A stretch of DNA of 32,000 nucleotides from Acaryochloris marina S15 (GTDB taxonomy: Bacteria > Cyanobacteriota > Cyanobacteriia > Thermosynechococcales > Thermosynechococcaceae): assembly GCF_018336915.1 (NCBI RefSeq), contig NZ_CP064923.1, forward strand, positions 5,550,001 to 5,582,000. The letters are read 5' to 3'. The position numbers were made by a program, and so were the translations under genes. Below the pieces are notes generated by a model. It saw only the letters and a program-made list of their open reading frames with translations. It did no database searches and was not told where the DNA came from. Shown here one piece after another: positions 3,371 through 31,931 of the stretch; within the stretch, counting starts at the first letter, position 1, and each line of letters starts with the position of its first letter.

Positions 3371-5133
3371 CTACATTCAGCAGGCTAGCTAGCAGAGCAG
3401 ATAATATTTTTTACAGCCCTTCCCAAGGAACGGCAAGATAAGTTGCTGCCTGCTGTTGAGCTTGATGAGATGCTTGGCACCATCAAGCCAAACTAAATGG
3501 ACGGCCTGAAAGCATTGGAGAATCCAACGTAACGTAGGTTTCATAGTTTGTTTCCCCTTCTGATTAGGGAGAGTTGTTTGTACTTGTTCTAGTGCATTTC
3601 TTAACTGTCGTTGTCCTAAGCTGTAGACCATCAAACACAAGGCCATGATCATGGCTAAGGCAGCGATACGCCGAGGTGTCTTCAGGAAAACACTAGAGGC
3701 AAAGAAGAGTGGATCTTTGATAAAGCGAAAGCCTCCTTCACACGCCTGCTGGTTCTTATACTCGCGCAGAATATCATCATTGCTCCATTGCTCTTGTTCC
3801 AAGAGATTGGTGGCTAAGATGAAACGACCTGCTTGCCGCCGATAGCGTTCGATGACTGGCTCATTGAGGGTTAAGGTAGCCTCAATAGAATAGGTGTAGT
3901 GAGTCACAACCGTTGCTTTTGTCGGTCGTCCAGCCTTTGAATAATGAGGTTTTTTGTGGATTTTGAGATCGTCAAGGGTGTGATACCTGAGGATTTTGCC
4001 AAAATCTTGGGCTGCAGCTAAAGCATCTGCAGGGCACAAGAAGGTCTGTTTGCAGAGGGTTTTAAGTGCAGTAGTTTTTTGGCTAAACGCCTGATCAATC
4101 CGCTTTTGCACTTGTTTGAGTCCAGAGTCTCTGCGAGCTTTACTTTCAACCACCAGCCACCGTTGTTGAATCTCTCCATAGGTACTACATACTTCGACAA
4201 AGCTATAGCCGTTGAGAGCACTGGGGTGAAACTGTGAACCCGGCAGCCCTTGTAATAAGTCTTGGGCTGCCGTTGAACTTGCTGGAACTCGGCTAATCCA
4301 AGATGTACTTCCTAATGCTTGCAGATTGTCGGCACTGTAGAGGGCACTATCAGCAACAATCACCTCTGGCTGTTGCTGACTCCACTGTTGCTTAAATTCA
4401 TGGATGATAGGCACAAACGTACTTTTGTCCGCATCATTACCGTTGCCCACTTGTAAAAATAAAGGAATACCCCCGTCCCCACTCACCAGTAGGTTCAATA
4501 CAAACTGCTTGAGATCACGACGATTGTCCCGTGAGTAGCCGTAGGTGATTTTCACGGGTATCGGCTCCTCTGATTCAGCCAGTGCAGGGGAGGGGGACTC
4601 AGGTGCAGAGGGGGATTCGTCTGACGCCTCAACCTGTGGTTTATCTAAGTATTGCCCCTCAACACTAAGGCTTGTCGCATCTAGATGCGCACACCTTAGA
4701 GCTACATCGAATTTCTGAACGACTGCCATTGCCACATGGATAAATATCTGGGTCACACCATAGGCATAGAGCTTGTCGAGGACTCGACCGATACGGGTAT
4801 CGTTGAGGTGCTCTGGCAGTACACCTTGACCGAGTAAGTGCTCGGTTGCTTTGCTTTCGAAAAACTCACTAAATAAGTACAATGGAGCACTCAAAAAGCC
4901 CATACCATTTAGAATCAGGGCTTTGACAACTTGACCACAACTAACATTCTCTTGCTCGTGAGTACCTAATAATCGATCCACTATTTCGACAATGCCGATC
5001 TCATCGACGATACCGGCAATAATACCGAGATGGTCAATATCCTGAACGTCTATCTCTTGAGGTGAATACATGGACTTGCGTTGAGAGACAACCTCAAAAT
5101 TATCCCTTGATGGTTAGTACCTGCTGAATGTCG
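3371..5133 (-). mobile_element. IS1634-family (IS4 superfamily) insertion sequence, ~1763 bp, apparently intact
   Basis: Terminal inverted repeats are CTACATTCAGCAGG (3371-3384) and the reverse complement of 5120-5133 (CGACATTCAGCAGG), matching 13/14. A subterminal GATAAT(A)TTTT match sits 16 nt further in at both ends. There is a single 560-aa transposase ORF and perfect 8-bp flanking direct repeats. Confidence 0.85.
3389..5071 (-). CDS. IS1634-family DDE transposase
   Basis: The 560-aa ORF has an N-terminus (IDHLGIIAGIVDEIGIVEIVD...GMGFLSAPLYLF) typical of the DUF4277 + DDE(IS4) architecture of IS1634-group transposases. It fills the space between the IRs. Confidence 0.85.
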   Translation of the reverse strand: MYSPQEIDVQDIDHLGIIAGIVDEIGIVEIVDRLLGTHEQENVSCGQVVKALILNGMGFLSAPLYLFSEFFESKATEHLLGQGVLPEHLNDTRIGRVLDKLYAYGVTQIFIHVAMAVVQKFDVALRCAHLDATSLSVEGQYLDKPQVEASDESPSAPESPSPALAESEEPIPVKITYGYSRDNRRDLKQFVLNLLVSGDGGIPLFLQVGNGNDADKSTFVPIIHEFKQQWSQQQPEVIVADSALYSADNLQALGSTSWISRVPASSTAAQDLLQGLPGSQFHPSALNGYSFVEVCSTYGEIQQRWLVVESKARRDSGLKQVQKRIDQAFSQKTTALKTLCKQTFLCPADALAAAQDFGKILRYHTLDDLKIHKKPHYSKAGRPTKATVVTHYTYSIEATLTLNEPVIERYRRQAGRFILATNLLEQEQWSNDDILREYKNQQACEGGFRFIKDPLFFASSVFLKTPRRIAALAMIMALCLMVYSLGQRQLRNALEQVQTTLPNQKGKQTMKPTLRWILQCFQAVHLVWLDGAKHLIKLNSRQQLILPFLGKGCKKYYLLC

Positions 5134-6997: not shown

Positions 6998-8305
6998 GTG
7001 GTCAGGATTCTCCGGTTGTCAGAGATGACATCTGAAGAACTCGCTTCCATCAAACGACGGGCCGAGTTAGATATTGAACAGGCGCTAGCTGTCGCCAAAG
7101 AAGTCATTGACGAGATTCGCGCTGACGGTGATCAGGGCGTGATCAAATACGTCCGCAAATTTGATTTTCCCGGTGCCACAACCGAAAATCTGAAAGTGAC
7201 CGAAGCCGAATTTGCCGTTGCCCGCGAGCAAGTCGAGCCCGAAATCAAAGCCGCGATTGAGCAAGCCTATCGCAACATCAAAGAAGTGCACGAACGGCAA
7301 ATGCCAGAAGAAGTGCAGCTTGCCGAAATCGATGGCGGCGTCTTTGCTGGGGAAAAAGTCACCCCTATTGCCAGTGCTGGACTATATGTGCCTCGGGGTA
7401 AAGGCTCCTTTCCCTCAGTGATGCTGATGCTCAGCGTGCCAGCGGTCGTAGCCGGAGTGGAAAGAATTGTTGTCTGTACACCACCGGACAAAAACGGCAC
7501 CGTAGAGCCTGCCTCTCTTGTCGCAGCTGAACTGGCAGGCGTGAAAGATGTATACAAATTAGGCGGCATCCAAGCAATCGCAGGCATGGCGATCGGTACT
7601 GACACAGTACCCAAAGTCGATAAAATCACTGGACCTTGCAACGTCTATGGCTCCGCCGCCAAGCGCCTGCTCTACGGCACCGTTGATGTTGGCTTACCCG
7701 CTGGTCCTAGTGAATCGATTATTCTTACGGACGAAACCACTGACCCCCGGATTGCAGCCTTAGATCTGCTGGTAGAAGCAGAGCATGGTCCCGACTCGGC
7801 AGGCTTACTGGTTACCCACAGCGAAGACCTAGCCAAGGCCGCGTCCAAACATGCAGACGACTATATGCAGCAGTTGCCTGAATGGCGCAAAAACTTCTGT
7901 CAGAAGGGCCTGTCTTCTTATGGCGGTATTATTCTCACCTCCAGCCTGGAAGAATCGATTGATTTCCTCAACGATTATGCCCCTGAGCATTTAGAAGTTC
8001 TGGTACAAGACCCCCTCAGCGTTCTCGGCAAAATCAAGAATGCTGGTGAAATTCTCCTCGGTCCCTATACCCCCATTCCAACGGCCAACTACTGCATTGG
8101 CGTCAACGCCATTCTGCCTACGGGAGGCTTTGCTCGCTCCTACTCGGCGGTATCGGTATACGACTTTCTCAAGCGCACTGGCATTGGTTATTTAACAAAA
8201 GAAGGCTTTGATCGCTTGGGCCATACGGCTCAAACCTTGGCGGAGCATGAAGACTTCCCGGCCCATGCCATGGCCATTCGTGAGCGTAAGAACCTGCTCC
8301 CGTAA
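6998..8305 (+). CDS. hisD: Histidinol dehydrogenase
   Basis: Full-length 435-aa match to the HisD pattern (YVPRGKGSFPS, KITGPCNVY, EAEHGPDS, APEHLE). The GTG start is preceded by AAGGAG 7 nt upstream. Confidence 0.95.
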   Translation: MVRILRLSEMTSEELASIKRRAELDIEQALAVAKEVIDEIRADGDQGVIKYVRKFDFPGATTENLKVTEAEFAVAREQVEPEIKAAIEQAYRNIKEVHERQMPEEVQLAEIDGGVFAGEKVTPIASAGLYVPRGKGSFPSVMLMLSVPAVVAGVERIVVCTPPDKNGTVEPASLVAAELAGVKDVYKLGGIQAIAGMAIGTDTVPKVDKITGPCNVYGSAAKRLLYGTVDVGLPAGPSESIILTDETTDPRIAALDLLVEAEHGPDSAGLLVTHSEDLAKAASKHADDYMQQLPEWRKNFCQKGLSSYGGIILTSSLEESIDFLNDYAPEHLEVLVQDPLSVLGKIKNAGEILLGPYTPIPTANYCIGVNAILPTGGFARSYSAVSVYDFLKRTGIGYLTKEGFDRLGHTAQTLAEHEDFPAHAMAIRERKNLLP

Positions 8306-8324
8306 GGGGCGGTGGAGGGTTACC

Positions 8325-9548
8325 GTGTCCGATCAACTCCTGTATCAGATTCAGACGTTACAGTTTTCTGATCAGGCAGCGGCGAATGCCCTGCTGAAGG
8401 ACTTCGTCAATGACAATTTCCCTTTCAATGTGGAGCAGGTACAGGTACGTCCTTCGGCGGTATCCCTTAACTCCATTAATGGATTTCTGCATACCGTGGA
8501 AGGAGACAAACTGTTCTTCAAAACCCACGTTGAACCCCAAAGCCTGATTCATGAGTATTACAACTCCACGATCATGGCAGAGGCAGGCTATCCCATTATT
8601 CAGCCCATTTTTAGCTCAACAGAATGGGGTAAGCAGCTGCTGGTCTATGAGTTTTTTGAATCCCCATCTCTGTTTGATGTGGCTCGTCAGATTGAAACGG
8701 GACAGCGAGGCGGAGCTGACCAGATTATTGCCCTGCAGGAAAAAGCAGACCAAGACCTGTGGGCCATCTATCAGCAAACCCTGCAGCCTTTATCAGCCGA
8801 AGACCATGCCGAAGTCCCCATTCACCAACTGTTTGTCCATCGCCTAGTCGGAGGACGATATCACGAGTTTTACGCAGGCAAAGAAGTCAAGCTACCAGAA
8901 CACACCCTGAACTTTGACCCACTCGCTCAACTAACCTGGCAGATTAATGGCATACCTTACCAAGACACCCTAGCTGACATTATTCAAACAGCCAGTCAAA
9001 AGCTTGTCCCAACCTCTACTCCCTCTGTTGTCGGTCATGGTGATGCTCATAATGGCAATGTGTTCGTAGATGAAGACGCAGAAACCCTGATCTATTTTGA
9101 TCCTGCCTTTGCCGGACGGCATTCACCCTTTTTAGATCTAACGAAGCCGATCTTCCATAACGTATTTGCGATTTGGCTGTATTTCCCCCAAGAGATCGCC
9201 AAAGACCTATCCATTAACTTAGAGATCTCAGCAGACCAGATCCAAGTGGATCATGATTTTCGACCATCAGCTATACGTCTAAGATTCCTGCAATCAAAGC
9301 TCATGCATGTACTCCAGCCCTTGCTTGAGCGCCTAAAAGCTTCTGGTCAACTCCCTGAAACCTGGCGACAGGAACTCAAGTTGGCACTGTTTTGCTGTCC
9401 TTTTTTAACCATGAACCTCTGCGATACCCAACGCTTTCCGCCAGAAATTACGCTACTGGGCTTATCCCTAGCAGTAGAAATGGGCAGTTCTAGCACCTCC
9501 CAGAACCAGAGCATTTTAGATACTGCCCTGGACCAACTCAACATATAA
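8325..9548 (+). CDS. APH/choline-kinase-like phosphotransferase family protein
   Basis: Catalytic-loop motif HGDAHNGNVF followed by IYFDPAF (a DFG-like D). The track ORF starts at 8208 inside hisD. The GTG at 8325 is in frame, follows a GGAGGG Shine-Dalgarno at 8314-8319, and lies 19 nt after the hisD stop. Confidence 0.75.
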   Translation: MSDQLLYQIQTLQFSDQAAANALLKDFVNDNFPFNVEQVQVRPSAVSLNSINGFLHTVEGDKLFFKTHVEPQSLIHEYYNSTIMAEAGYPIIQPIFSSTEWGKQLLVYEFFESPSLFDVARQIETGQRGGADQIIALQEKADQDLWAIYQQTLQPLSAEDHAEVPIHQLFVHRLVGGRYHEFYAGKEVKLPEHTLNFDPLAQLTWQINGIPYQDTLADIIQTASQKLVPTSTPSVVGHGDAHNGNVFVDEDAETLIYFDPAFAGRHSPFLDLTKPIFHNVFAIWLYFPQEIAKDLSINLEISADQIQVDHDFRPSAIRLRFLQSKLMHVLQPLLERLKASGQLPETWRQELKLALFCCPFLTMNLCDTQRFPPEITLLGLSLAVEMGSSSTSQNQSILDTALDQLNI

Positions 9549-9592: not shown

Positions 9593-10150
9593 ATGCCGAA
9601 GTTTCCCAAGTTGCAGTGTAAGCGCGGCATTCTACGAATGGCAACAGAAGATGATATTGATGCCATCCTGAGGTATTTCATCGTTAATCAAGACCATTTA
9701 GCCCCCTTTGAGCCGATTAAACCGGTGGAGTTTTATACACCCAACTTTTGGCGGGTATTGATTCGCGATCGCACCCATGCATTCCTCAACGATCAAGGCA
9801 TCAAGTTCTTCCTGTTTGATCGGCACAATCCCCAGCAGATTATTGCGGCTATCAACTTCTCAAATGTAGTGCGAGGGGCATTTCAGTCCTGCACCTTAGG
9901 CTTTAGTATTGCCGACCAATATCAAGGTCAAGGCTATATGGCCGAGTCGATACCTGTTGCGATCGCATACCTCTTCTCTGACCTCAACTTGCACCGGATT
10001 ATGGCAGCCTATATGCCCCATAACCAACGTAGCGGCAGACTCCTCCGACGATTAGGCTTTCAACTGGAAGGATATGCCCCTAGATACCTCTGCATTAACG
10101 GGATATGGCAAGACCATATGCTCACTAGCCTCATCAACACTAATATTTAG
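9593..10150 (+). CDS. GNAT family N-acetyltransferase (RimJ/RimL-like)
   Basis: QGQGYMAES acetyl-CoA-binding-type motif, a RLGFQLEG tail and a length of 185 aa. Confidence 0.8.
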   Translation: MPKFPKLQCKRGILRMATEDDIDAILRYFIVNQDHLAPFEPIKPVEFYTPNFWRVLIRDRTHAFLNDQGIKFFLFDRHNPQQIIAAINFSNVVRGAFQSCTLGFSIADQYQGQGYMAESIPVAIAYLFSDLNLHRIMAAYMPHNQRSGRLLRRLGFQLEGYAPRYLCINGIWQDHMLTSLINTNI

Positions 10151-10230
10151 ATTTTATTTAGATCCGGCAGTCACCAAACCGAAAAGGACGTGGGCACAAT
10201 AAAGGTAGCTATTGTCATGGAAGTTCGACG

Positions 10231-10253
10231 GGGGGCGCAAGCCCCTTTTTTTT
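10231..10253 (+). terminator. Rho-independent terminator downstream of the GNAT gene
   Basis: GGGGC-GCAA-GCCCC hairpin (GNRA-type tetraloop) followed by eight T residues (10246-10253). Confidence 0.75.
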
Positions 10254-10288
10254 ATAGAATTAGACCATAAACACAACTGAAAATCTTG

Positions 10289-10357
10289 TGAAGTTATTTT
10301 GAAGCGTCAAGCTCTCTACAACAAATTTTATTCTTTTGAAAGTTCAAAATAACTTCA
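10289..10357. repeat. 15-bp perfect inverted repeat (TGAAGTTATTTTGAA / TTCAAAATAACTTCA) with a 39-nt spacer
   Basis: The arms lie at 10289-10303 and 10343-10357 in an AT-rich intergenic region. AAAATCTTG recurs nearby at 10280 and 10393. Confidence 0.6.
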
Positions 10358-10561
10358 ACTATCTCTCACGTAATTGAGATATTAGCCTTCACAAAATCTT
10401 GAGATTTTTCCTATCGTTTTGCTACACATGCGATAGAAACTACAGTTAGAAACCTTGGGATCTTTATCCTCAAAGTTTTAAACAATAATTATTTAATATT
10501 TACTACAGAAAAGATGTCTGTTTCCATAAGAAATGGGGCATTATCTAATCAATTAGTCTCC

Positions 10562-10592
10562 AAATAAAAACCCAGCACGGGGGGTGCTGGGT
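10562..10592 (-). terminator. Rho-independent terminator on the minus strand
   Basis: Perfect 9-bp stem ACCCAGCAC / GTGCTGGGT (10570-10578 / 10584-10592) with a 5-nt G loop. On the minus strand it is followed by TTTTTATTT (complement of 10562-10570). Confidence 0.6.
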
Positions 10593-10610
10593 CGATATGG
10601 GAGGTATTGG

Positions 10611-10652
10611 AACCCTCTGGATGAGTGAATGCATCGCATCCGAGGGTTTTTT
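10611..10652 (+). terminator. Rho-independent terminator on the plus strand
   Basis: Stem AACCCTC(T)GGATG ... CATCCGAGGGTT (10611-10623 / 10637-10648) has 12 bp with one bulge and runs into TTTTTT (10647-10652). Confidence 0.6.
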
Positions 10653-10928
10653 ATGGCATGAATTAACTAGTTGTTTATACTCTAACCAATCTTCCAAACC
10701 CAGACCTGAGAAGAACTACGGAATTATTATTTCTGTTACCAAAAAACCTCCAGTAAATACACCCACATTTACTTTCGCTCTATCGAATAGAAGTCATAAC
10801 AGCCATAACAGAAACGGAACTTTAGACAGAAATTTATAATATTCACAACAACTTCATAGGGCAATAAGTGCACGCCCCTCCTGATACGCTGAAATGAATC
10901 CATTCAAAGTTTTTATGGCAGAGCAGAT

Positions 10929-12356
10929 ATGGAAACGCAAACCGATTCCAATCCGAGCAACTTAGATATTCAATTCAATTTTTGGCAACAGTGGTATCCA
11001 GTCGCTCCCTTAGAAGACTTAGATCCACAGCGCCCCACTGCCATTACGTTATTAGGGCAACATTTTGTTATTTGGCAACCCAAGCATTCTGACCAATATC
11101 TAGTATTTCAAGATCTGTGCTCCCACCGCTTAGCTCCCCTCAGTGAAGGTCGCATTGACGAGCAAACCGGTCAGCTCATGTGTAGCTATCACGGTTGGCA
11201 ATTTGATCAAGAAGGTCTTTGCACCCACATTCCTCAAGCTGAAGCAGTCACCCCTAAGCAGGGACAGCTGTACTGCGTTACTGCTGTCCCCACTCAAGCG
11301 CAAAGTGGACTGTTGTGGGTATGGCCAGATCCAGACACCCGAGAAATTGCTGCCACACAACCTTTGCCTCTCTCCCCCCTCATTAATGCTGACCAAAACT
11401 TTGTCTGGTCCTCTGTCATGAGAGATTTGGCCTATGATTGGCAAACGTTAGTTGAAAACGTCTCTGACCCGAGTCACGTTCCCTTTGCCCATCATGGTGT
11501 CCAAGGCAATCGCAACCAAGCCGCTCCTATCCCTATGGAGGTTCTGACCTCCACCCCAGAGCTAATTGAAGTCTTGACCACGGGGAAGTTCGCCACCACA
11601 ATCACCTTTCAACCGCCCTGCCGCTTGGAATATCAATTTTCTATCGGTGAAGGGAAACAAGCAGCTATGGTCACCTACTGTATTCCCATTGCCCCAGGTC
11701 GATCTCGCATCGTAGCCCTGTTTGCACGCAATTTTGCCACAGGTCTCATGAAAGTGCTTCCTCGCTGGGTAGAGCATATGAAAAACCGCAATCCAGTGCT
11801 GGATGGCGACATGATTTTGTTACGTGCCCAAGAAAAACAGCTTCTTCAGCACACCCAAACCCAAAATTGGCAAACCGCCTACAAGCTCCCCACCAGTGCG
11901 GATCGTCTCGTGATTGAATATCGGCGATGGTTCGAAAAGTATAGTCACGGACAAATTCCTTGGGGATCTGCTGATGGGCAGATTTTCGTTGCTTCCAACA
12001 ACTATGACTATTTACAACCTCTAGGAGAGAAGCGACCTCAAATTCTGGATCGATATCATCAACACACCTTGATCTGTAGTAGCTGTCGACGAGCGTTGAG
12101 CAGAATCAAGCTATTGCAAAAGATTTTGGTAGCTGTCTTTGCGATCGCAATCAGTGGAACAGCAATCTTGCCTGATTCTTTACTCCCTTCCCGCCATAAG
12201 ATTGTGCATCTAAATATCATTGAAATTCTTATTTATCAAGAATCTGAATACCCAATCTTATGCTGGGATGGGAGTAAGAGTGACGTGGGGGATTCCCATG
12301 GTTCTCATAGGGCTTCTAGGGTTAGGGATCTATTATGGGTTGAAATATTGGCTTAA
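10929..12356 (+). CDS. PaO/Tic55-type Rieske [2Fe-2S] non-haem-iron oxygenase; the 3' end appears frame-disrupted
   Basis: Rieske motif CSHRLAPLSEG...CSYHGWQF, mononuclear iron region DPSHVPFAHHG and the PaO-family C-terminal CxxC (CSSCRRAL). After residue ~418 the translation becomes atypical (HKIVHLNIIEILIYQESEYPILCWDG...), while the +1 frame carries a TM helix and a ...KYWLKPRFYFVDYIHAHH tail. Confidence 0.85.
   Translation: METQTDSNPSNLDIQFNFWQQWYPVAPLEDLDPQRPTAITLLGQHFVIWQPKHSDQYLVFQDLCSHRLAPLSEGRIDEQTGQLMCSYHGWQFDQEGLCTHIPQAEAVTPKQGQLYCVTAVPTQAQSGLLWVWPDPDTREIAATQPLPLSPLINADQNFVWSSVMRDLAYDWQTLVENVSDPSHVPFAHHGVQGNRNQAAPIPMEVLTSTPELIEVLTTGKFATTITFQPPCRLEYQFSIGEGKQAAMVTYCIPIAPGRSRIVALFARNFATGLMKVLPRWVEHMKNRNPVLDGDMILLRAQEKQLLQHTQTQNWQTAYKLPTSADRLVIEYRRWFEKYSHGQIPWGSADGQIFVASNNYDYLQPLGEKRPQILDRYHQHTLICSSCRRALSRIKLLQKILVAVFAIAISGTAILPDSLLPSRHKIVHLNIIEILIYQESEYPILCWDGSKSDVGDSHGSHRASRVRDLLWVEILA
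12183..12274. repeat. AT-rich palindromic (MITE-like) element inside the 3' end of the Rieske gene
   Basis: Imperfect 22-nt inverted repeats: CTCCCTTCCCGCCATAAGATTG (12183-12204) against the reverse complement of 12253-12274 (CTCCCATCCCAGCATAAGATTG). They match 19/22, including a perfect 10-mer CATAAGATTG. An inner ATTCTT/AAGAAT pair is also present. The exact boundaries are uncertain. Confidence 0.55.
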
Positions 12357-12399
12357 ACCCAGATTTTATTTTGTGGATTATATCCATGCACATCACTGA
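12214..12399 (+). other. Displaced native C-terminal coding segment of the Rieske/PaO gene (+1 frame relative to 10929)
   Basis: Open frame reading ...AGMGVRVTWGIPMVLIGLLGLGIYYGLKYWLKPRFYFVDYIHAHH* (TGA at 12397-12399). It encodes a hydrophobic helix plus an aromatic tail, as expected for membrane-anchored PaO-family proteins. Confidence 0.6.
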
Positions 12400-13024
12400 T
12401 CAATCGATTTTTAGATAAAAGCCTTGGAAACACTCTGTCCATAAGTGTTTTCAAAGCTATTTTGTACAACGTTACACCAACCGTTAGAGTTCAGTGAACG
12501 ATAGAACCTGCCTACCCGTGAACTGAATTCCATCGACCTAACAACCAAAAGATACAGGTTTATGGCCAAGAGTTATTACCACAAAAAGTTTTACAAGATA
12601 AGAACCTTTATAGTTATTTCATTGATTCATATTAATTTATATGAAATATTACCGATTTCTTCGTGCAGATTTAATTTGGTAGTCTATTGACAACCAAATC
12701 TTCCAAAACTGGGTCTATTGTAACTTCCACAACATTTATGAGGAAGAAATTTCAGCCCTTTCATAAATATATTCTTTAGATTAAAATCTTGACTAAAATG
12801 CAGAGTATTGCGAATGAGATCGCACGATCAGCTCAGCTGCCATAACGGGGATCAAATTCTTACAATCTTTACAAGGAAAAGCTTACAAGGATTATTATCG
12901 GTATTACAATTTATATGTAAAGAACTGTATTGAGTCCTAGCTATGTAAACCATGAGTATTAAGTATTTTTTCTTAGCCTGTTTGAGCTGAGTGGAAGGAT
13001 ATACTTCTAGAACAGAAACGCTTG

Positions 13025-26216: not shown

Positions 26217-26879
26217 ATGAAACTTAAAAATCAGCAGATGCTACCGCTCGACGAGCAACTCCGTCAACTGGTCATAGAAGCCCGCCAATATCCCTCAGGC
26301 CATTTGAAACGAAAGCAATGTTTGACGCAGATTGTGCGACTGATTGAACAATCTCGTAAGCTCTGGCATGAACATACTCCTTACTATGAAGATGCCCTGC
26401 AGCAAACCTGGGTTTATTTTTGCCAAAATATTTGTGAAGCCGGTACTGGCGAACAATATGATCCCGACCGTAGTAGTGTCGTTACCTGGTTAAACCGATA
26501 TCTGAAATGGCGCTTACAAGACTTTCGCATTAACAAACAAAAGCACCTCGCAAGATATACCTCTAAAGCTCCTAGCGCCATCAACAAAAACCAAGACGTC
26601 ACGGATAATCTCGCTGCTCCTCCAGATACTCCCCCAATTTTGGAAACAACCCGTCATTGGGTGGAAACCGACCCCTCAGGTGAGTTAAGAAACGTTCATA
26701 TTCAAAACCGACCGGATGTCACCTGCCAAGTTTTACTATTAAGGCGTCTGCCACCGGAGCAAGGATGGGAAAAGGTTTCTGAAGAATTTGGCTTACCCAT
26801 TTCTACCCTGAGTAGTTTTTACCAACGACAATGTATGACCCGCTTGCGTAATTTTGGTCTGTCACAAGGATATCTATAA
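26217..26879 (+). CDS. Sigma-70-family-like protein (divergent region 2 + region 4 HTH)
   Basis: The region-2-like segment is YEDALQQTWVYFCQNI...SSVVTWLNRYLKWRLQDF. The region-4-like HTH is WEKVSEEFGLPISTLSSFYQRQCMTRLRNF. It is the first gene of a four-gene co-oriented cluster. Confidence 0.7.
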   Translation: MKLKNQQMLPLDEQLRQLVIEARQYPSGHLKRKQCLTQIVRLIEQSRKLWHEHTPYYEDALQQTWVYFCQNICEAGTGEQYDPDRSSVVTWLNRYLKWRLQDFRINKQKHLARYTSKAPSAINKNQDVTDNLAAPPDTPPILETTRHWVETDPSGELRNVHIQNRPDVTCQVLLLRRLPPEQGWEKVSEEFGLPISTLSSFYQRQCMTRLRNFGLSQGYL

Positions 26880-27928: not shown

Positions 27929-30900
27929 GTGGATAAATTAGTCGTATTGCGCATGGGAGAAGGTAGCTTTACACAGGGTTTTCCTGTGACCCTTCAAGTT
28001 GGCAAAGAAAACGACAGACCCTCGACTGAAATTGTTGGTTTTCTTCCTCCCAATCCTAATATTCCTCAGTATTATCAAGGGTGGCAAACGGCTTATCTCA
28101 ACTTGGGACTAACCACCCGTTTAGATGCTCCCACAGAACAATTAACCAACATCGATTGGCAAGAACTCCAAATCAACTGCGAACAGGCAGCCCACACACT
28201 TCATCATGCATTAGATCAATGGCTTCTAGCAGACCCCTTTCGACCTGTTCGGGATAAATGGCTGGAGCAACTTTCTCTACAAGATCACATCCGGATTATT
28301 TTGCAAACGGATAATCCGCAACTGCAGCGCTTACCCTGGCATCAGTGGGAACTTTTAACACGCTACCCCTTTGCCGAACTGGTCTTGAGTGCTCCAACCT
28401 ATGAAGGCATTCAGCGCCAATCTAGCTCCACTGCTGGCATCAAGATTCTTGCCATTTTGGGGAGTAGCCAAGGCATCAATACTCAAGCAGATCACGGGTT
28501 ACTGAATCAGCTTCCTAACGCAAATGTGACGTTTCTGGTAGAACCACAGCGGCAAGAACTCACCGATCAGCTATGGGATCAAAACTGGGATATTTTATTT
28601 TTCGCAGGCCATAGCCATAGCTCTAATCCCTGTGACACAGGCCATATTTGCCTCAATGCTCATGAAACACTGAATATCAATCAGCTGAAGTATGCTCTGC
28701 AGCAAGCCATTAGCAAAGGGTTACAGCTTGCTATTTTCAACTCTTGTGACGGTTTAGGACTCGCCCATCAACTGGCTGACATCCATCTGCCAGCCATGGT
28801 GATCATGCGCGAACCCATTCCTGATCAAGTAGCCCAATATTTTCTCAAGTACTTCTTAACTGCTTTTTCCAAAGGCAAACCTTTTCATTTAGCCGTCCGC
28901 GAAGCTCGGGAACGACTCCATGATCTTGAGCCTCATTTTCCATGTGCCACGTGGCTGCCGATTATTTGCCAAAATCCAGCCGAGATTCCACCCACATGGC
29001 AAAAGCTGAGTAAAAGTGATGGAGACGACTATTCTTTATGGCGCCATGACAATGACTCAGCAGCTCAAATCGTCACGATTGTCTTCACCGATTTAGTCAG
29101 CTCTACTGCCATTAAACAGGCTATGCCTGGCCTGGATGTCACAACCCGTAACCACCAGTATTACGACACAATTCTCCAACCCCACCGCCAACGCGTCACA
29201 GCTAGCTTAACGGCCTTTGGCGGTCGCTTGGTCAAAACAGAAGGGGATGGCTTTCTTATAAGCTTTCCAGGTGCCATGCAGGCTGCACAATGGTCCATCG
29301 CCCTGCAACAGCACCATGAACAAGATCCGATTACGACACCGTTTGGCCCCTTACAAGTCAGAATCGGTATGCATACAGGCAGCCCCTTATTGAAGGCTGA
29401 AGATCATGACTACATTGGCCAAGAAGTAGACTATGCCTATCGCATTTCTGACTTAGCTGATGGTGGACAAATCCTACTGTCAGAAGTCTCAGCCGTGTTG
29501 CTGCGCAATGCAGGCCTAACGGATATTACGGTGTATGACCATGACCATTGCTCCCTCAAAGGAATCGGCTGTGTACCTGTTTTCGAAATTCTCTGGGACA
29601 ATCGGCAACCCCGTCCGGTGCGAGATACACCATCCACGGTCTCGAATTCTCGCCATCAAGACCGACAGTCACCGGAAGTAGAACAAACTTTGCCAACTGC
29701 TGTGGCACCAATTGTTGCGGAACTGCCTCTAGAAAAAGTATCTCTCTTTTCTAAAGTTCACCGTTTTTGTCGCCGTCCTCTTTTATCCGCCTTGCCTACC
29801 AGTCTATGTTTGACAGCTGCCATTATTGGCATTCGAGGGCTAGGCATTCTACAGCCCATAGAGTTTTGGGCATTTGATCAGCTCCTGCGCCTCAGACCAA
29901 ATGAAGGTCCCGATCCCAGGCTATTAATTGTATTGGTCACGGATAAAGATATTCAGGCCCAAGGGGATCAGACGAAGCGGAGTTCTTTAAATGATCCAAC
30001 CCTGACTCGACTCCTGACTCAGTTAAACAAGGCTAAACCCCAGGCCATCGGCTTAGACATTTACAGAGATTTTACCGTTGATCCGAACTACCCCCAACTC
30101 GCGACCCAACTCAAGAACAATGAGCGCTTAGTAGTTCCCTGTAAAGGGAGTGATTCATCCAGTAATACAGATGGCATCGCGCCTCCAACTGAAGTACAAG
30201 CACCCAATCGCATCGGTTTTACAGATTTTATCGAAGATGGAGATGGGGTGTTACGCCGACATATCCTTCATATGAACCATGAGCCTGCCTCTCCCTGTCA
30301 AGCGTCTTTCTCCTTCGGTTCTCTGTTAGCCTTCCATTACTTGGAACAGCAGTCACCCCAGACATTTTCCCTCAAGTTTGCTGAACCCGAAGGCCACCCC
30401 TTGGAGTTGCAGGTTCAAACGGATCAACCTGGTACCGGAACAACACGAACCACAATCTTTAAACAACTACAGCCCCATGGCGGCTATCAAGGGATTAACG
30501 ATGACCGCATGAGAGGCTTGCAATTAATGCTAAATTATCGAGCCTTAAAGAGACCGACAGACATTGCCAAAACGGTAACTTTGGAGCAAGTACTGGCGGG
30601 ACAAGTTAATGCCAATGCGATTAAAGACAAGGTTGTTTTAGTGGGAGTCCAAGCGAGTGGATCTGGAGATTTTTGGTCTACTCCCTACGGTGCTGGCCCC
30701 ACTCAGAAGGTGGCAGGTGTTTTTGTGCAGGCTCATATGGCCAGTCAGATCATCAGTGCCGTTGAAGATCAACGTTCCTGCTTCAAAATATGGCCTCAAT
30801 GGGCTGATGGTCTTTGGATCTGGGGCTGGGCAATGATGGGCGGCATCGTTGCTATTGTCTTCAAACTCACAACTCGCACCGGTGTGATCAGCACTGTTTT

Positions 30901-31051
30901 AGTGAGTGGATTGTTCAGCCTCTGTTTATGGGGCCTGATACAGGCCATCTGGATGCCGCTCATACCGTCCCTGATAGCTTTTGTCATCACGACCGTTGCG
31001 GTGCTGTTAGTGCGCACCAAAAAAATTGATCATGATCATCCAGCTTCTTAA
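27929..31051 (+). CDS. Multidomain membrane protein: N-terminal CHAT (caspase-like) protease domain, class III nucleotide cyclase domain, TM helix, CHASE2 sensor domain, three C-terminal TM helices
   Basis: GTG start. CHAT core spans ~aa 170-350 with the His/Cys dyad FFAGH(228)SH (28610-28612) and IFNSC(273)DG (28745-28747). The cyclase spans ~aa 381-556 (VTIVFTDLVSST, VKTEGDGFLISF, VRIGMHTG, GQEVDYAYRISDLADGGQILLS). TM1 is aa 617-640. CHASE2 spans ~aa 641-955 (LRLRPNEGPDPRLLIVLVTDKDI, AIGLDIYRD, GFTDFIEDGDGVLRR, VVLVGVQA). The C-terminal TM helices are aa 958-1028. Confidence 0.8.
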   Translation: MDKLVVLRMGEGSFTQGFPVTLQVGKENDRPSTEIVGFLPPNPNIPQYYQGWQTAYLNLGLTTRLDAPTEQLTNIDWQELQINCEQAAHTLHHALDQWLLADPFRPVRDKWLEQLSLQDHIRIILQTDNPQLQRLPWHQWELLTRYPFAELVLSAPTYEGIQRQSSSTAGIKILAILGSSQGINTQADHGLLNQLPNANVTFLVEPQRQELTDQLWDQNWDILFFAGHSHSSNPCDTGHICLNAHETLNINQLKYALQQAISKGLQLAIFNSCDGLGLAHQLADIHLPAMVIMREPIPDQVAQYFLKYFLTAFSKGKPFHLAVREARERLHDLEPHFPCATWLPIICQNPAEIPPTWQKLSKSDGDDYSLWRHDNDSAAQIVTIVFTDLVSSTAIKQAMPGLDVTTRNHQYYDTILQPHRQRVTASLTAFGGRLVKTEGDGFLISFPGAMQAAQWSIALQQHHEQDPITTPFGPLQVRIGMHTGSPLLKAEDHDYIGQEVDYAYRISDLADGGQILLSEVSAVLLRNAGLTDITVYDHDHCSLKGIGCVPVFEILWDNRQPRPVRDTPSTVSNSRHQDRQSPEVEQTLPTAVAPIVAELPLEKVSLFSKVHRFCRRPLLSALPTSLCLTAAIIGIRGLGILQPIEFWAFDQLLRLRPNEGPDPRLLIVLVTDKDIQAQGDQTKRSSLNDPTLTRLLTQLNKAKPQAIGLDIYRDFTVDPNYPQLATQLKNNERLVVPCKGSDSSSNTDGIAPPTEVQAPNRIGFTDFIEDGDGVLRRHILHMNHEPASPCQASFSFGSLLAFHYLEQQSPQTFSLKFAEPEGHPLELQVQTDQPGTGTTRTTIFKQLQPHGGYQGINDDRMRGLQLMLNYRALKRPTDIAKTVTLEQVLAGQVNANAIKDKVVLVGVQASGSGDFWSTPYGAGPTQKVAGVFVQAHMASQIISAVEDQRSCFKIWPQWADGLWIWGWAMMGGIVAIVFKLTTRTGVISTVLVSGLFSLCLWGLIQAIWMPLIPSLIAFVITTVAVLLVRTKKIDHDHPAS

Positions 31052-31082
31052 ATCCTCATCCCCAGTAAAGGAGATTTCGTTT

Positions 31083-31931
31083 ATGCTGACTGCCCAACCT
31101 TTTTCTCGATCAATGCTGCTAACCTTAGCAGTTTGTACCATGGCAAGTGCAGGACTTTCTGGGCGCACACCCCATGTAATGGCCATGCATCAGCACCACC
31201 ATCTGACCTTTACCATGCCAACTCCCCCCAGCGACCCCGGCGCCCCGACCGGTCGGCGTGAAGGTGGAAGCAGTCGTGGCGATAAAATTTACACTTTATG
31301 TAAGACGGAAGCAGAAGCAGCCAACAAACAATGTGCAACGTCCCGATTAACCGCTCTAGTACCTGAAATTGATGCAGAAAAACAGATCTGGGGGCTGACA
31401 ACAGCTGATCACCCGGAATTCCTCTTCTACTTATCGAAGTTCAGAACCCCAGAACAACCCCAAACCACACGCCTGAACATTGAATTCGTCTTGCAAGACG
31501 AGAACGATCAATACGTCCACAAAACCCGTTTTGCTTTACCGTTGACGGAAGGTGGCATCATTCGTATTCCTATTCCTGCAAACCGAGATCCTTTACAGGT
31601 GGGCAAGCGATATACCTGGACGCTTTTGACAAAATTCGGACCGAACGAGACCAATTATGTACACGGCAGAATCTACCGTGTACAGATGGACACCCAACGC
31701 CAGCAGCAATTGCCAACAGCTTCCCCCTTGAAGCGTTTGGAAATCTATTTGGAAGAAGGCTTATGGTTCGATGCAATTTCGATGTTGGTTGATTTAAAGC
31801 AAGATGCTCCCCAAGATCTAACGCTGATCTCAAAATGGAACAGTTTGTTAGACAATATCAATCTCAAAGAACTGGCCACTGAACCCATGCTGTCCTGTTG
31901 TACCCCTGAACCCCATTTATCCCTCAAATAA
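31083..31931 (+). CDS. DUF928 domain protein, secreted
   Basis: The ATG at 31083 is preceded by AAGGAG (31068-31073). It has a signal-peptide-like N-terminus MLTAQPFSRSMLLTLAVCTMASAG. The DUF928 hallmark PPSDPGAPTGRREGGSSRGD is followed by LTALVP...WGLTTADHPEFLFYL...EFVLQDEND...GKRYTW. The track start at 31026 overlaps the previous gene. Confidence 0.75.
   Translation: MLTAQPFSRSMLLTLAVCTMASAGLSGRTPHVMAMHQHHHLTFTMPTPPSDPGAPTGRREGGSSRGDKIYTLCKTEAEAANKQCATSRLTALVPEIDAEKQIWGLTTADHPEFLFYLSKFRTPEQPQTTRLNIEFVLQDENDQYVHKTRFALPLTEGGIIRIPIPANRDPLQVGKRYTWTLLTKFGPNETNYVHGRIYRVQMDTQRQQQLPTASPLKRLEIYLEEGLWFDAISMLVDLKQDAPQDLTLISKWNSLLDNINLKELATEPMLSCCTPEPHLSLK

Follow-up and report, generated by a model that had tools for sequence, protein, structure and literature searches.

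Within a 32,000-nucleotide (nt) stretch of the Acaryochloris marina S15 genome (contig NZ_CP064923.1, positions 5,550,001 to 5,582,000; hereafter, the window) lies an open reading frame (ORF) for a membrane receptor in which two enzymatic domains, a caspase-like CHAT protease and a class III nucleotidyl cyclase, precede a CHASE2 sensor. This locus raises the following questions: is such a protein an anomaly among CHASE2 receptors or a variant of an already described family, and is the cyclase, with Asp501 in place of the transition-state Asn, an enzyme or a silent module serving the protease? We conclude that the receptor is a cyclase-bearing variant of the computationally described EACC2-caspase family (Kaur, Iyer, Burroughs & Aravind, eLife 2021; PMC8195603), the cyclase insertion being its only unusual feature. 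With somewhat better than even confidence, we regard it as a receptor of this EACC2-caspase (CHAT) family, encoded by the third gene of a cluster, with a periplasmic CHASE2 sensor, an adenylate cyclase inserted into the tether between the protease and the first transmembrane helix (TM1), and a dual output driven by clustering.

Three Pfam profiles match the receptor with scores exceeding their gathering scores: CHAT (PF12770; amino acids (aa) 68-334, E 2.4e-14, 53.9 bits against a cut-off of 24), Guanylate_cyc (PF00211; aa 380-545, E 3.1e-9, 37.1 bits against 21.9), and CHASE2 (PF05226; aa 629-973, E 4.9e-62, 210 bits against 26.3, covering profile positions 3-257 of 257). The order CHAT, cyclase, TM1, CHASE2, three TM helices, given in the preliminary description of this DNA, was confirmed by Pfam, hydropathy, and an AlphaFold2 (AF2) model built on 120 homologues (mean pLDDT, predicted local distance difference test, 85), and the residues H228, C273, D388, K436, D440, D494, D501, and R505 were each found where that description had placed them. 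Its boundary for the start of CHAT, aa ~170, had to be revised, as the Pfam envelope begins at aa 68. The start and length of the receptor agree with those of homologues opening with MxKLVV; the exact protein is present in public assemblies, and a 99% identical copy occurs in Acaryochloris sp. 'Moss Beach' and A. marina, annotated merely as 'CHASE2 domain-containing protein'.

Hydropathy, positive-inside counts, and the AF2 helices agree on a CHASE2 domain that is predicted to be extracytoplasmic, preceded by one TM helix and followed by three, and leave a tail of eight residues (hydropathy, AF2) after the last helix. Lys and Arg residues number five before TM1 and three in the C-terminal tail, with two in the loop between TM2 and TM3 and none in that between TM3 and TM4; together with the hydropathy this distribution places the N-terminus inside, CHASE2 outside, and the C-terminus inside, which fits a four-pass membrane protein with both enzymatic domains in the cytoplasm. 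The classical CHASE2 layout, where the cytoplasmic output is C-terminal to the third trailing helix, is hence not the layout of the receptor, whose outputs are N-terminal. Both enzymatic domains are attached to TM1, as had been proposed, and thus a signal must either cross TM1 or arise by clustering. Two cysteines of the CHASE2 domain, Cys738 (30140-30142) and Cys790 (30296-30298), are invariant across the 120 homologues, which is compatible with a periplasmic disulfide.

The 'inverted' order of domains had been taken for an anomaly, and this view did not hold. CHAT precedes CHASE2 in all 120 closest homologues, most of which are ~780-800 aa long and have no cyclase, and a caspase-type protease ahead of CHASE2 had already been published. 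An account from 2012 concerns an N-terminal metacaspase joined to a C-terminal CHASE2 in a 1+3 TM frame, and it reasons about topology in the same way (PMC3501461). In 2021, the architecture 'EACC2 + caspase + variable C-terminus' was described, with CHASE2 plus TM helices as one of the options and with extracytoplasmic function (ECF) sigma factor and DUF1822 genes as neighbours (PMC8195603); the supplement of that paper lists, for Fischerella, 'TRADD-N+TPRs (DUF1822 family) -> EACC2+CASPASE+CHASE2+TM+TM'. The receptor shows the same features, that is, an N-terminal alpha+beta domain followed by CHAT, a C-terminus that varies between relatives, and DUF1822 and sigma-like neighbours.

The first ~165 residues, previously counted as ~169 and considered unrecognisable, form an alpha+beta region strongly conserved across the 120 homologues, with strands at aa 3-9, 17-26, and 33-39 and helices at aa 44-58 and 77-114 in the AF2 model, and with W52, Y56, W98, L99, L115, R122, P136, W137, and E150 invariant. 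Scanned alone, aa 1-165 gave no Pfam match; since the architecture and the neighbours match those in PMC8195603, EACC2 as defined by Kaur et al. is the most likely identity of this region. In the protease that follows, the model places the members of the predicted catalytic dyad, His228 and Cys273, after strands 222-226 and 267-270, in the motifs FFAGHS and FNSCDG, respectively. Each of the two residues is retained in 35/36 cyclase-bearing proteins, and neither GHS nor NSCDG varies within two sets of diverse module representatives (n = 64 and n = 62).

An HMMER scan of aa 1-370 against 1.84 billion cluster representatives yielded 2576 matches (1577 at E<=1e-30) in proteins of 373-1829 aa. Most of them match over residues ~1-360, the module being nearly always N-terminal and the C-termini variable. 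A Pfam CHAT match was present in all 126 representatives scanned, and the commonest partner domain was CHASE2 (40/126), the others including STAND NTPases (nSTAND1/NB-ARC/NACHT), WD40, pentapeptide, TPR, HEAT, Peripla_BP_6, and trypsin.

The receptor gene belongs to a co-directional cluster, in which a sigma-like gene is followed by DUF1822 (after a gap of 23 nt), the receptor (54 nt), and DUF928. The first gene probably encodes a sigma factor: the identical 220-aa protein is labelled 'sigma-70 family RNA polymerase sigma factor' by NCBI, PMC8195603 also calls it a sigma factor, and an hhalign comparison with RpoE matched the region-4 helix-turn-helix only (E 0.014). The family of this protein comprises 1781 members and has no Pfam coverage. 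DUF1822 is, in the nomenclature of 2021, a TPR or TRADD-N+TPR adaptor encoded upstream of EACC2+CASPASE+CHASE2 (PMC8195603), and the DUF928 product is a probable periplasmic partner. The DUF928 gene starts with an ATG behind AAGGAG, yielding the exact NCBI protein QUY42472.1; the mechanical ORF list opens it at a TTG (31026-31931), overlapping the 3' end of the receptor gene.

Neighbour frequencies were computed across 80 loci. DUF928 is directly downstream in 61/66 CHASE2-type loci, compared with 0/4 module loci without CHASE2. A DUF1822 gene directly precedes the receptor gene in 50/73 species loci, and a sigma-like gene lies within 6 kb upstream in 24/70 loci; the upstream pair of sigma-like and DUF1822 genes is kept in the cyclase-bearing loci L001 and L002. 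A hint that the two proteins of this pair interact comes, by Rosetta-stone reasoning, from Floridaenema flaviceps, where a single 511-aa ORF (L077:7131-8663), flanked by two EACC2-CHAT genes, has a sigma-like region at aa 131-336, found with our own hidden Markov model, and at aa 401-510 the DUF1822 C-terminal half (Pfam E 4.8e-17). In several Nostoc species (L008, L009, L010, L012, L014), a second, divergently oriented copy of the cluster (DUF928 / CHAT-CHASE2 / DUF1822 / sigma-like) is found within 6 kb, so that paralogous clusters stand back to back. In Coleofasciculus sp. FACHB-64 (L003:10767-16373), the cluster is followed by two HemolysinCabind and two TPS-domain (two-partner secretion) genes, which may connect it with proteins that are secreted or exposed at the surface. 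A scan of our cluster for promoters and terminators gave results at or below chance level, and neither Rfam nor tRNA scans turned up anything connected with it.

The locus might instead be a conflict or programmed-death system, where CHASE2, and perhaps the cyclase, are sensor parts, CHAT frees EACC2 or cuts DUF1822/TRADD-N as a toxic or signalling effector, and the sigma factor is secondary. The module layout, a constant component plus a protease plus an interchangeable sensor, agrees with this and has been shown experimentally for EACC1, a latent pore-former that its caspase-like protease sets free (bioRxiv 10.1101/2025.11.14.688446); the module is also often combined with STAND NTPases instead, and the family is filed among apoptosis-like systems of multicellular prokaryotes in PMC8195603. 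On the other hand, PADLOC gave no match for any of the four cluster proteins, the surrounding genes are housekeeping ones (PSRP-3, thioredoxin, a CNNM/CorC transporter, CTP synthase, and hisD) and not a defence island, a sensor of the periplasmic small-molecule type with a tightly linked DUF928 suits environmental or cell-cell sensing rather than phage sensing, and EACC2 has no demonstrated effector activity. We thus give this account a real but minor chance of being correct, and return to the reading of the locus as a signalling receptor with an inserted cyclase.

The insertion is what sets the receptor apart. Cyclase-bearing forms make up 35/120 nearest homologues, being rare on a wider scale, as had been suggested for the fusion of a protease and a cyclase: a cyclase is present in 6/150 cluster representatives of the module and in 2/75 CHASE2-type loci of GTDB species genomes, namely, those of Geitlerinema sp. 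BBD and an Acaryochloridaceae metagenome-assembled genome. No EACC2+caspase+cyclase entry was found in the supplementary tables of PMC8195603. In a rough neighbour-joining tree built on the non-cyclase columns, a split has 32/35 cyclase forms on one of its sides, together with seven forms lacking a cyclase. The pattern is suggestive of a single main lineage of the insertion with subsequent losses, the tree being too crude to settle the matter.

The inserted domain has a class III profile match, the cyclase fold, both metal-binding Asp, and the substrate-specifying pair. All 50 matches listed by Foldseek for the full-length model, of 196 at E<=0.001, are cyclase domains. Ma1120 from Mycobacterium avium is the best PDB match (phmmer E 4e-12), with a close structural fit (Foldseek TM-score 0.91, root-mean-square deviation 1.9 A). 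In the HMMER alignment, G-Q-E-V-D501-Y-A-Y504-R505 is paired with G-R-N-V-A164-M-A-A167-R168 of Ma1120, and the register was checked independently by the Ma1120 point mutants in PDB, as K101E corresponds to K436, D157G to D494, and A167Y to Y504. Ala164, the position equivalent to the canonical Asn (PMC4215837), hence aligns with D501, and the replacement of Asn with Asp, proposed earlier by eye, is real.

We considered the conservation of these residues in 36 CHAT-cyclase-CHASE2 proteins that are 42-99% identical. The metal-binding D388 and D440 are each present in 36/36 proteins, K436 in 34/36 (Glu in two), D494 in 34/36 (the exceptions being Arg and Tyr), and R505 in 34/36 (His in two); the two departures at the Lys/Asp pair are P0019 (E/R) and P0036 (E/Y). 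Of the Asn-Arg pair that stabilises the transition state, the Arg is thus mostly kept, and the Asn is Asp501 in 36/36 proteins with no exception. Stand-alone cyanobacterial cyclases with 51-58% identity to the domain share the motif V-D-Y-A/T-A-R, some relatives among them being fused to DUF8082 or a STAND-type P-loop, while in remoter relatives the Asp gives way to Phe, Gln, Val, or Asn. As D501 is invariant and the motif recurs in the stand-alone cyclases, Asp501 is, judging by sequence comparison, a fixed trait of the clade under selection and not a sign of decay.

Nor does the loss of the Asn need to mean an inactive enzyme. Most cyclases have the Asn-Arg pair; Ma1120 has Ala164 instead of the Asn and is active, and its A164N mutation drastically lowers the adenylate cyclase activity and abolishes the guanylate cyclase activity (PMC4215837). 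The domain is thus probably an active adenylate cyclase with modified transition-state chemistry, the adenylate specificity being indicated by the Lys/Asp pair. The substrate choice is not certain. VDYAYR is the motif of the Acaryochloris subgroup, and other homologues have Ala or Val at the position of Tyr504; this tyrosine aligns with the one of Cya2 that is reported to favour GTP and boost guanylate cyclase activity (PMC4215837). The preference for ATP or GTP may therefore vary within the cyclase-bearing family. We also considered the 'PxPL(R/K)' tail behind the cyclase as a CHAT cleavage site and rejected it, since this tail, although conserved, is shared with the stand-alone cyclases.

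The preliminary description had treated Asp501 as a possible mark of a non-catalytic module. The substitution itself stands, and this interpretation of it is weakened by the invariance of D501, the retention of the other catalytic residues, and the activity of Ma1120. In its full form, the alternative is that the cyclase-homology domain is catalytically silent and serves as a nucleotide-binding or dimerisation module gating the CHAT protease. In its favour, the domain sits exactly between the protease and the membrane, a useful place for a dimerisation switch; it also draws on the absence of the Asn from all members, on the His replacing Arg505 in two homologues, and on the two proteins with a replaced Lys/Asp pair; yet invariant metal ligands and K436, D494, and R505 retained at 34/36 are the pattern expected for catalysis and not for binding alone, the closest solved relative works without the Asn, and near-identical domains exist on their own, with no protease to regulate. 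We consider this alternative unlikely.

Still less probable is that the Asp-for-Asn clade has altered chemistry, such as another nucleotide product or another catalytic base, with the receptor being a true dual-output device. If this were true, a caspase-like protease and a second-messenger synthase would be switched on together by one periplasmic signal. In cyanobacteria, cyclic-nucleotide signalling would then be coupled to a protease pathway of the apoptosis-like kind, either through the messenger or through CHAT cutting the tethers and so freeing the cyclase from the membrane. Finally, the suggestion that the three-domain ORF results from mis-assembly or read-through has practically no chance of being right: nothing speaks in its favour, the ORF is unbroken in 35 homologues of 42-99% identity, and it is refuted by homologues from independent NCBI, JGI, ENA, and Logan assemblies as well as by the Geitlerinema and Acaryochloridaceae genomes.

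For the receptor with an inserted adenylate cyclase, which we prefer, the connection between the cyclase and the membrane is informative about the mode of signalling. The aligned window aa 548-640, comprising the tail of the cyclase, the linker, and TM1, spans 48-96 residues across homologues, and hence the linker varies from ~10 to 60 aa. The linkers that tether the cytoplasmic domains are disordered and differ in length between homologues, which makes a rigid helical coupling unlikely; transmission by induced proximity or dimerisation would be likelier. Caspase-type proteases and class III cyclases are both activated by dimerisation, the latter requiring a head-to-tail dimer, and since this holds for both types of enzyme, signal-dependent clustering is the simplest model. 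A cue in the periplasm, which DUF928 may present or modulate, would alter the oligomeric state or packing of CHASE2 and the TM bundle. The resulting proximity would activate the CHAT protease, which may then cleave the receptor itself and/or the DUF1822 adaptor, freeing the sigma-like factor or an EACC2 fragment; it would also pair two cyclase domains as a head-to-tail dimer, giving a pulse of cyclic AMP (cAMP) as the second output. For the family as a whole, stimulus-induced activation of the autopeptidase, acting via TRADD-N and/or the ECF sigma factor, was proposed in PMC8195603.

Several observations speak against this model or parts of it. The assignment of the 220-aa protein as a sigma factor is weak: it has no Pfam or NCBIfam match, sequence and profile searches of PDB gave nothing meaningful, and the best Foldseek match of its AF2 model is not significant (E 0.18), although sigma factors make up seven of the ten top matches. 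The sigma-like gene is within 2.5 kb upstream at just 16/70 loci, being missing near most. Near the cyclase-bearing loci L001 and L002 we found no conserved protein binding cyclic nucleoside monophosphates. With its carboxylate, Asp cannot act as the hydrogen-bond donor that Asn canonically provides for the ring oxygen of the ribose, and catalysis, if present, must therefore differ in detail. Given the length and disorder of the tether, CHASE2 might equally well be a mere membrane anchor. In PDB sequence and profile searches, the EACC2-CHAT region matched no solved CHAT structure, and the literature that we searched, including searches for CHASE2 with a CHAT domain and for sll1891/AM1_2926, contained no experimental study of the EACC2-caspase family.

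Features of the receptor gene and its cluster (positions in the window)
Feature	Position	Strand	Details or basis
Sigma-70/ECF-like gene, 220 aa, first of the cluster	26217..26879	+	NCBI name of the identical protein
DUF1822 gene, 323 aa	26903..27874	+	Pfam DUF1822, E 6e-68, full-length
Receptor ORF, 1040 aa	27929..31051	+	GTG start; EACC2-CHAT-cyclase-TM-CHASE2-3TM
Probable EACC2, conserved alpha+beta N-terminal domain, aa 1-165	27929..28423	+	AF2, conservation, matching architecture
CHAT (caspase-like) protease core, aa 166-360 (AF2 core ~171-350)	28424..29008	+	Pfam CHAT, AF2
Predicted CHAT dyad	His228 28610-28612; Cys273 28745-28747	+	AF2, motif conservation
Flexible linker 1, aa 361-379	29009..29065	+	pLDDT <50 at 363-378; variable in sequence and length
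Class III nucleotidyl cyclase domain, aa 380-560 (AF2 fold 382-556)	29066..29608	+	Pfam, phmmer, Foldseek
Cyclase residues	D388 29090-29092; K436 29234-29236; D440 29246-29248; D494 29408-29410	+	
Cyclase residues	D501 29429-29431; Y504 29438-29440; R505 29441-29443	+	
Disordered tether between cyclase and TM1, aa 561-616	29609..29776	+	pLDDT <50 at 569-604
TM1, aa 617-640	29777..29848	+	Hydropathy peak 617-644; AF2 helix 618-637; five Lys/Arg just upstream
CHASE2 domain, predicted periplasmic, aa 641-956	29849..30796	+	Pfam CHASE2
Three C-terminal TM helices, aa 957-1032	30797..31024	+	Hydropathy; AF2 helices 957-978, 982-1004, 1011-1032
DUF928 gene, 282 aa, signal-peptide-like N-terminus	31083..31931	+	Pfam DUF928, E 2e-47

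Elsewhere in the window, a DDE transposase gene (DUF4277 + DDE_Tnp_1; 3389-5071, minus strand) is situated amid housekeeping genes. Two stretches have a low guanine plus cytosine content, 10001-11000 (0.39) and 12001-13000 (0.37), compared with ~0.47 for the window; they flank a Rieske/PaO oxygenase gene (10929-12356), and there is no Rfam match there. ARAGORN called a 92-nt tRNA-Gly(GCC) at 8880-8971 on the minus strand, inside the ORF 8208-9548; the Rfam gathering score is not reached, and the call is probably a false positive.

The architecture itself will not surprise specialists. With >2500 clusters at 50% identity, the EACC2-caspase family is a very large one, found mostly in filamentous or multicellular cyanobacteria, and in the cyclase-bearing variant an easy enzymatic read-out, cAMP, would be physically linked to the sensor and the protease. 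Such a read-out could help to identify the stimuli of CHASE2 and DUF928 and the way in which the module is switched on. After Ma1120, this would also be the second natural clade of class III cyclases dispensing with the 'essential' Asn, here with a conserved acidic residue in its place.

Among known systems, some parallels are those of working logic. Lon-SAVED CalpL-CalpT-CalpS is reportedly a related protease/sigma circuit. The logic may also match that of Csx29-Csx30-RpoE from type III-E CRISPR (PMC10028731), where a signal-activated protease cuts an adaptor controlling an ECF-type sigma factor. In contrast to that system, the receptor has no CRISPR association, and its input is a membrane sensor, not RNA or cyclic oligoadenylate; neither Csx29 nor Csx30 shows detectable similarity in sequence, and we do not claim membership of that family. 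The same applies to the protease-licensed effectors with EACC1, whose working logic is similar.

The canonical CHASE2 receptors are reportedly built as TM-CHASE2-3TM-output, a layout attributed to Zhulin et al. (2003). They have in common with the receptor the 1+3 TM frame and a class III cyclase as a possible output, as in the CHASE2 adenylate cyclases of Sinorhizobium meliloti (PMC13001267), whereas in the receptor the outputs are N-terminal to TM1 and no output domain follows TM4. Its cyclase also belongs to another clade than the canonical CHASE2 cyclases, the nearest relatives being stand-alone cyanobacterial cyclases and Ma1120/Rv1900c. With Ma1120 (PDB 4wp9, 5d0e; PMC4215837) the domain shares the Lys/Asp pair, both metal-binding Asp, the Arg, and the absence of the canonical Asn; Ma1120 differs in having Ala164 where the receptor has Asp501, in being soluble and part of neither a receptor nor a protease, and in its low identity (27-28%).

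Similar in overall architecture is a metacaspase-CHASE2 protein from Trichodesmium erythraeum (Asplund-Samuelsson et al., PLoS One 2012; PMC3501461), which is alike in the N-terminal protease of the caspase superfamily, the C-terminal CHASE2, the 1+3 TM frame, and the reasoning that puts the sensor outside and the protease in the cytoplasm. Its protease is Peptidase_C14 (a metacaspase), not CHAT, and it has neither EACC2 nor a cyclase. The EACC2+caspase+CHASE2 systems of Kaur et al. share with our locus the N-terminal alpha+beta domain with caspase/CHAT, the C-terminal CHASE2 with TM helices, DUF1822 directly upstream, a sigma-like gene, and the cyanobacterial distribution. The strong DUF928 linkage is not named as such there, a downstream gene being given as 'TM+beta_rich+TPRs', and a class III cyclase between the caspase and TM1, as in the receptor, was not found in the supplementary tables of that paper.

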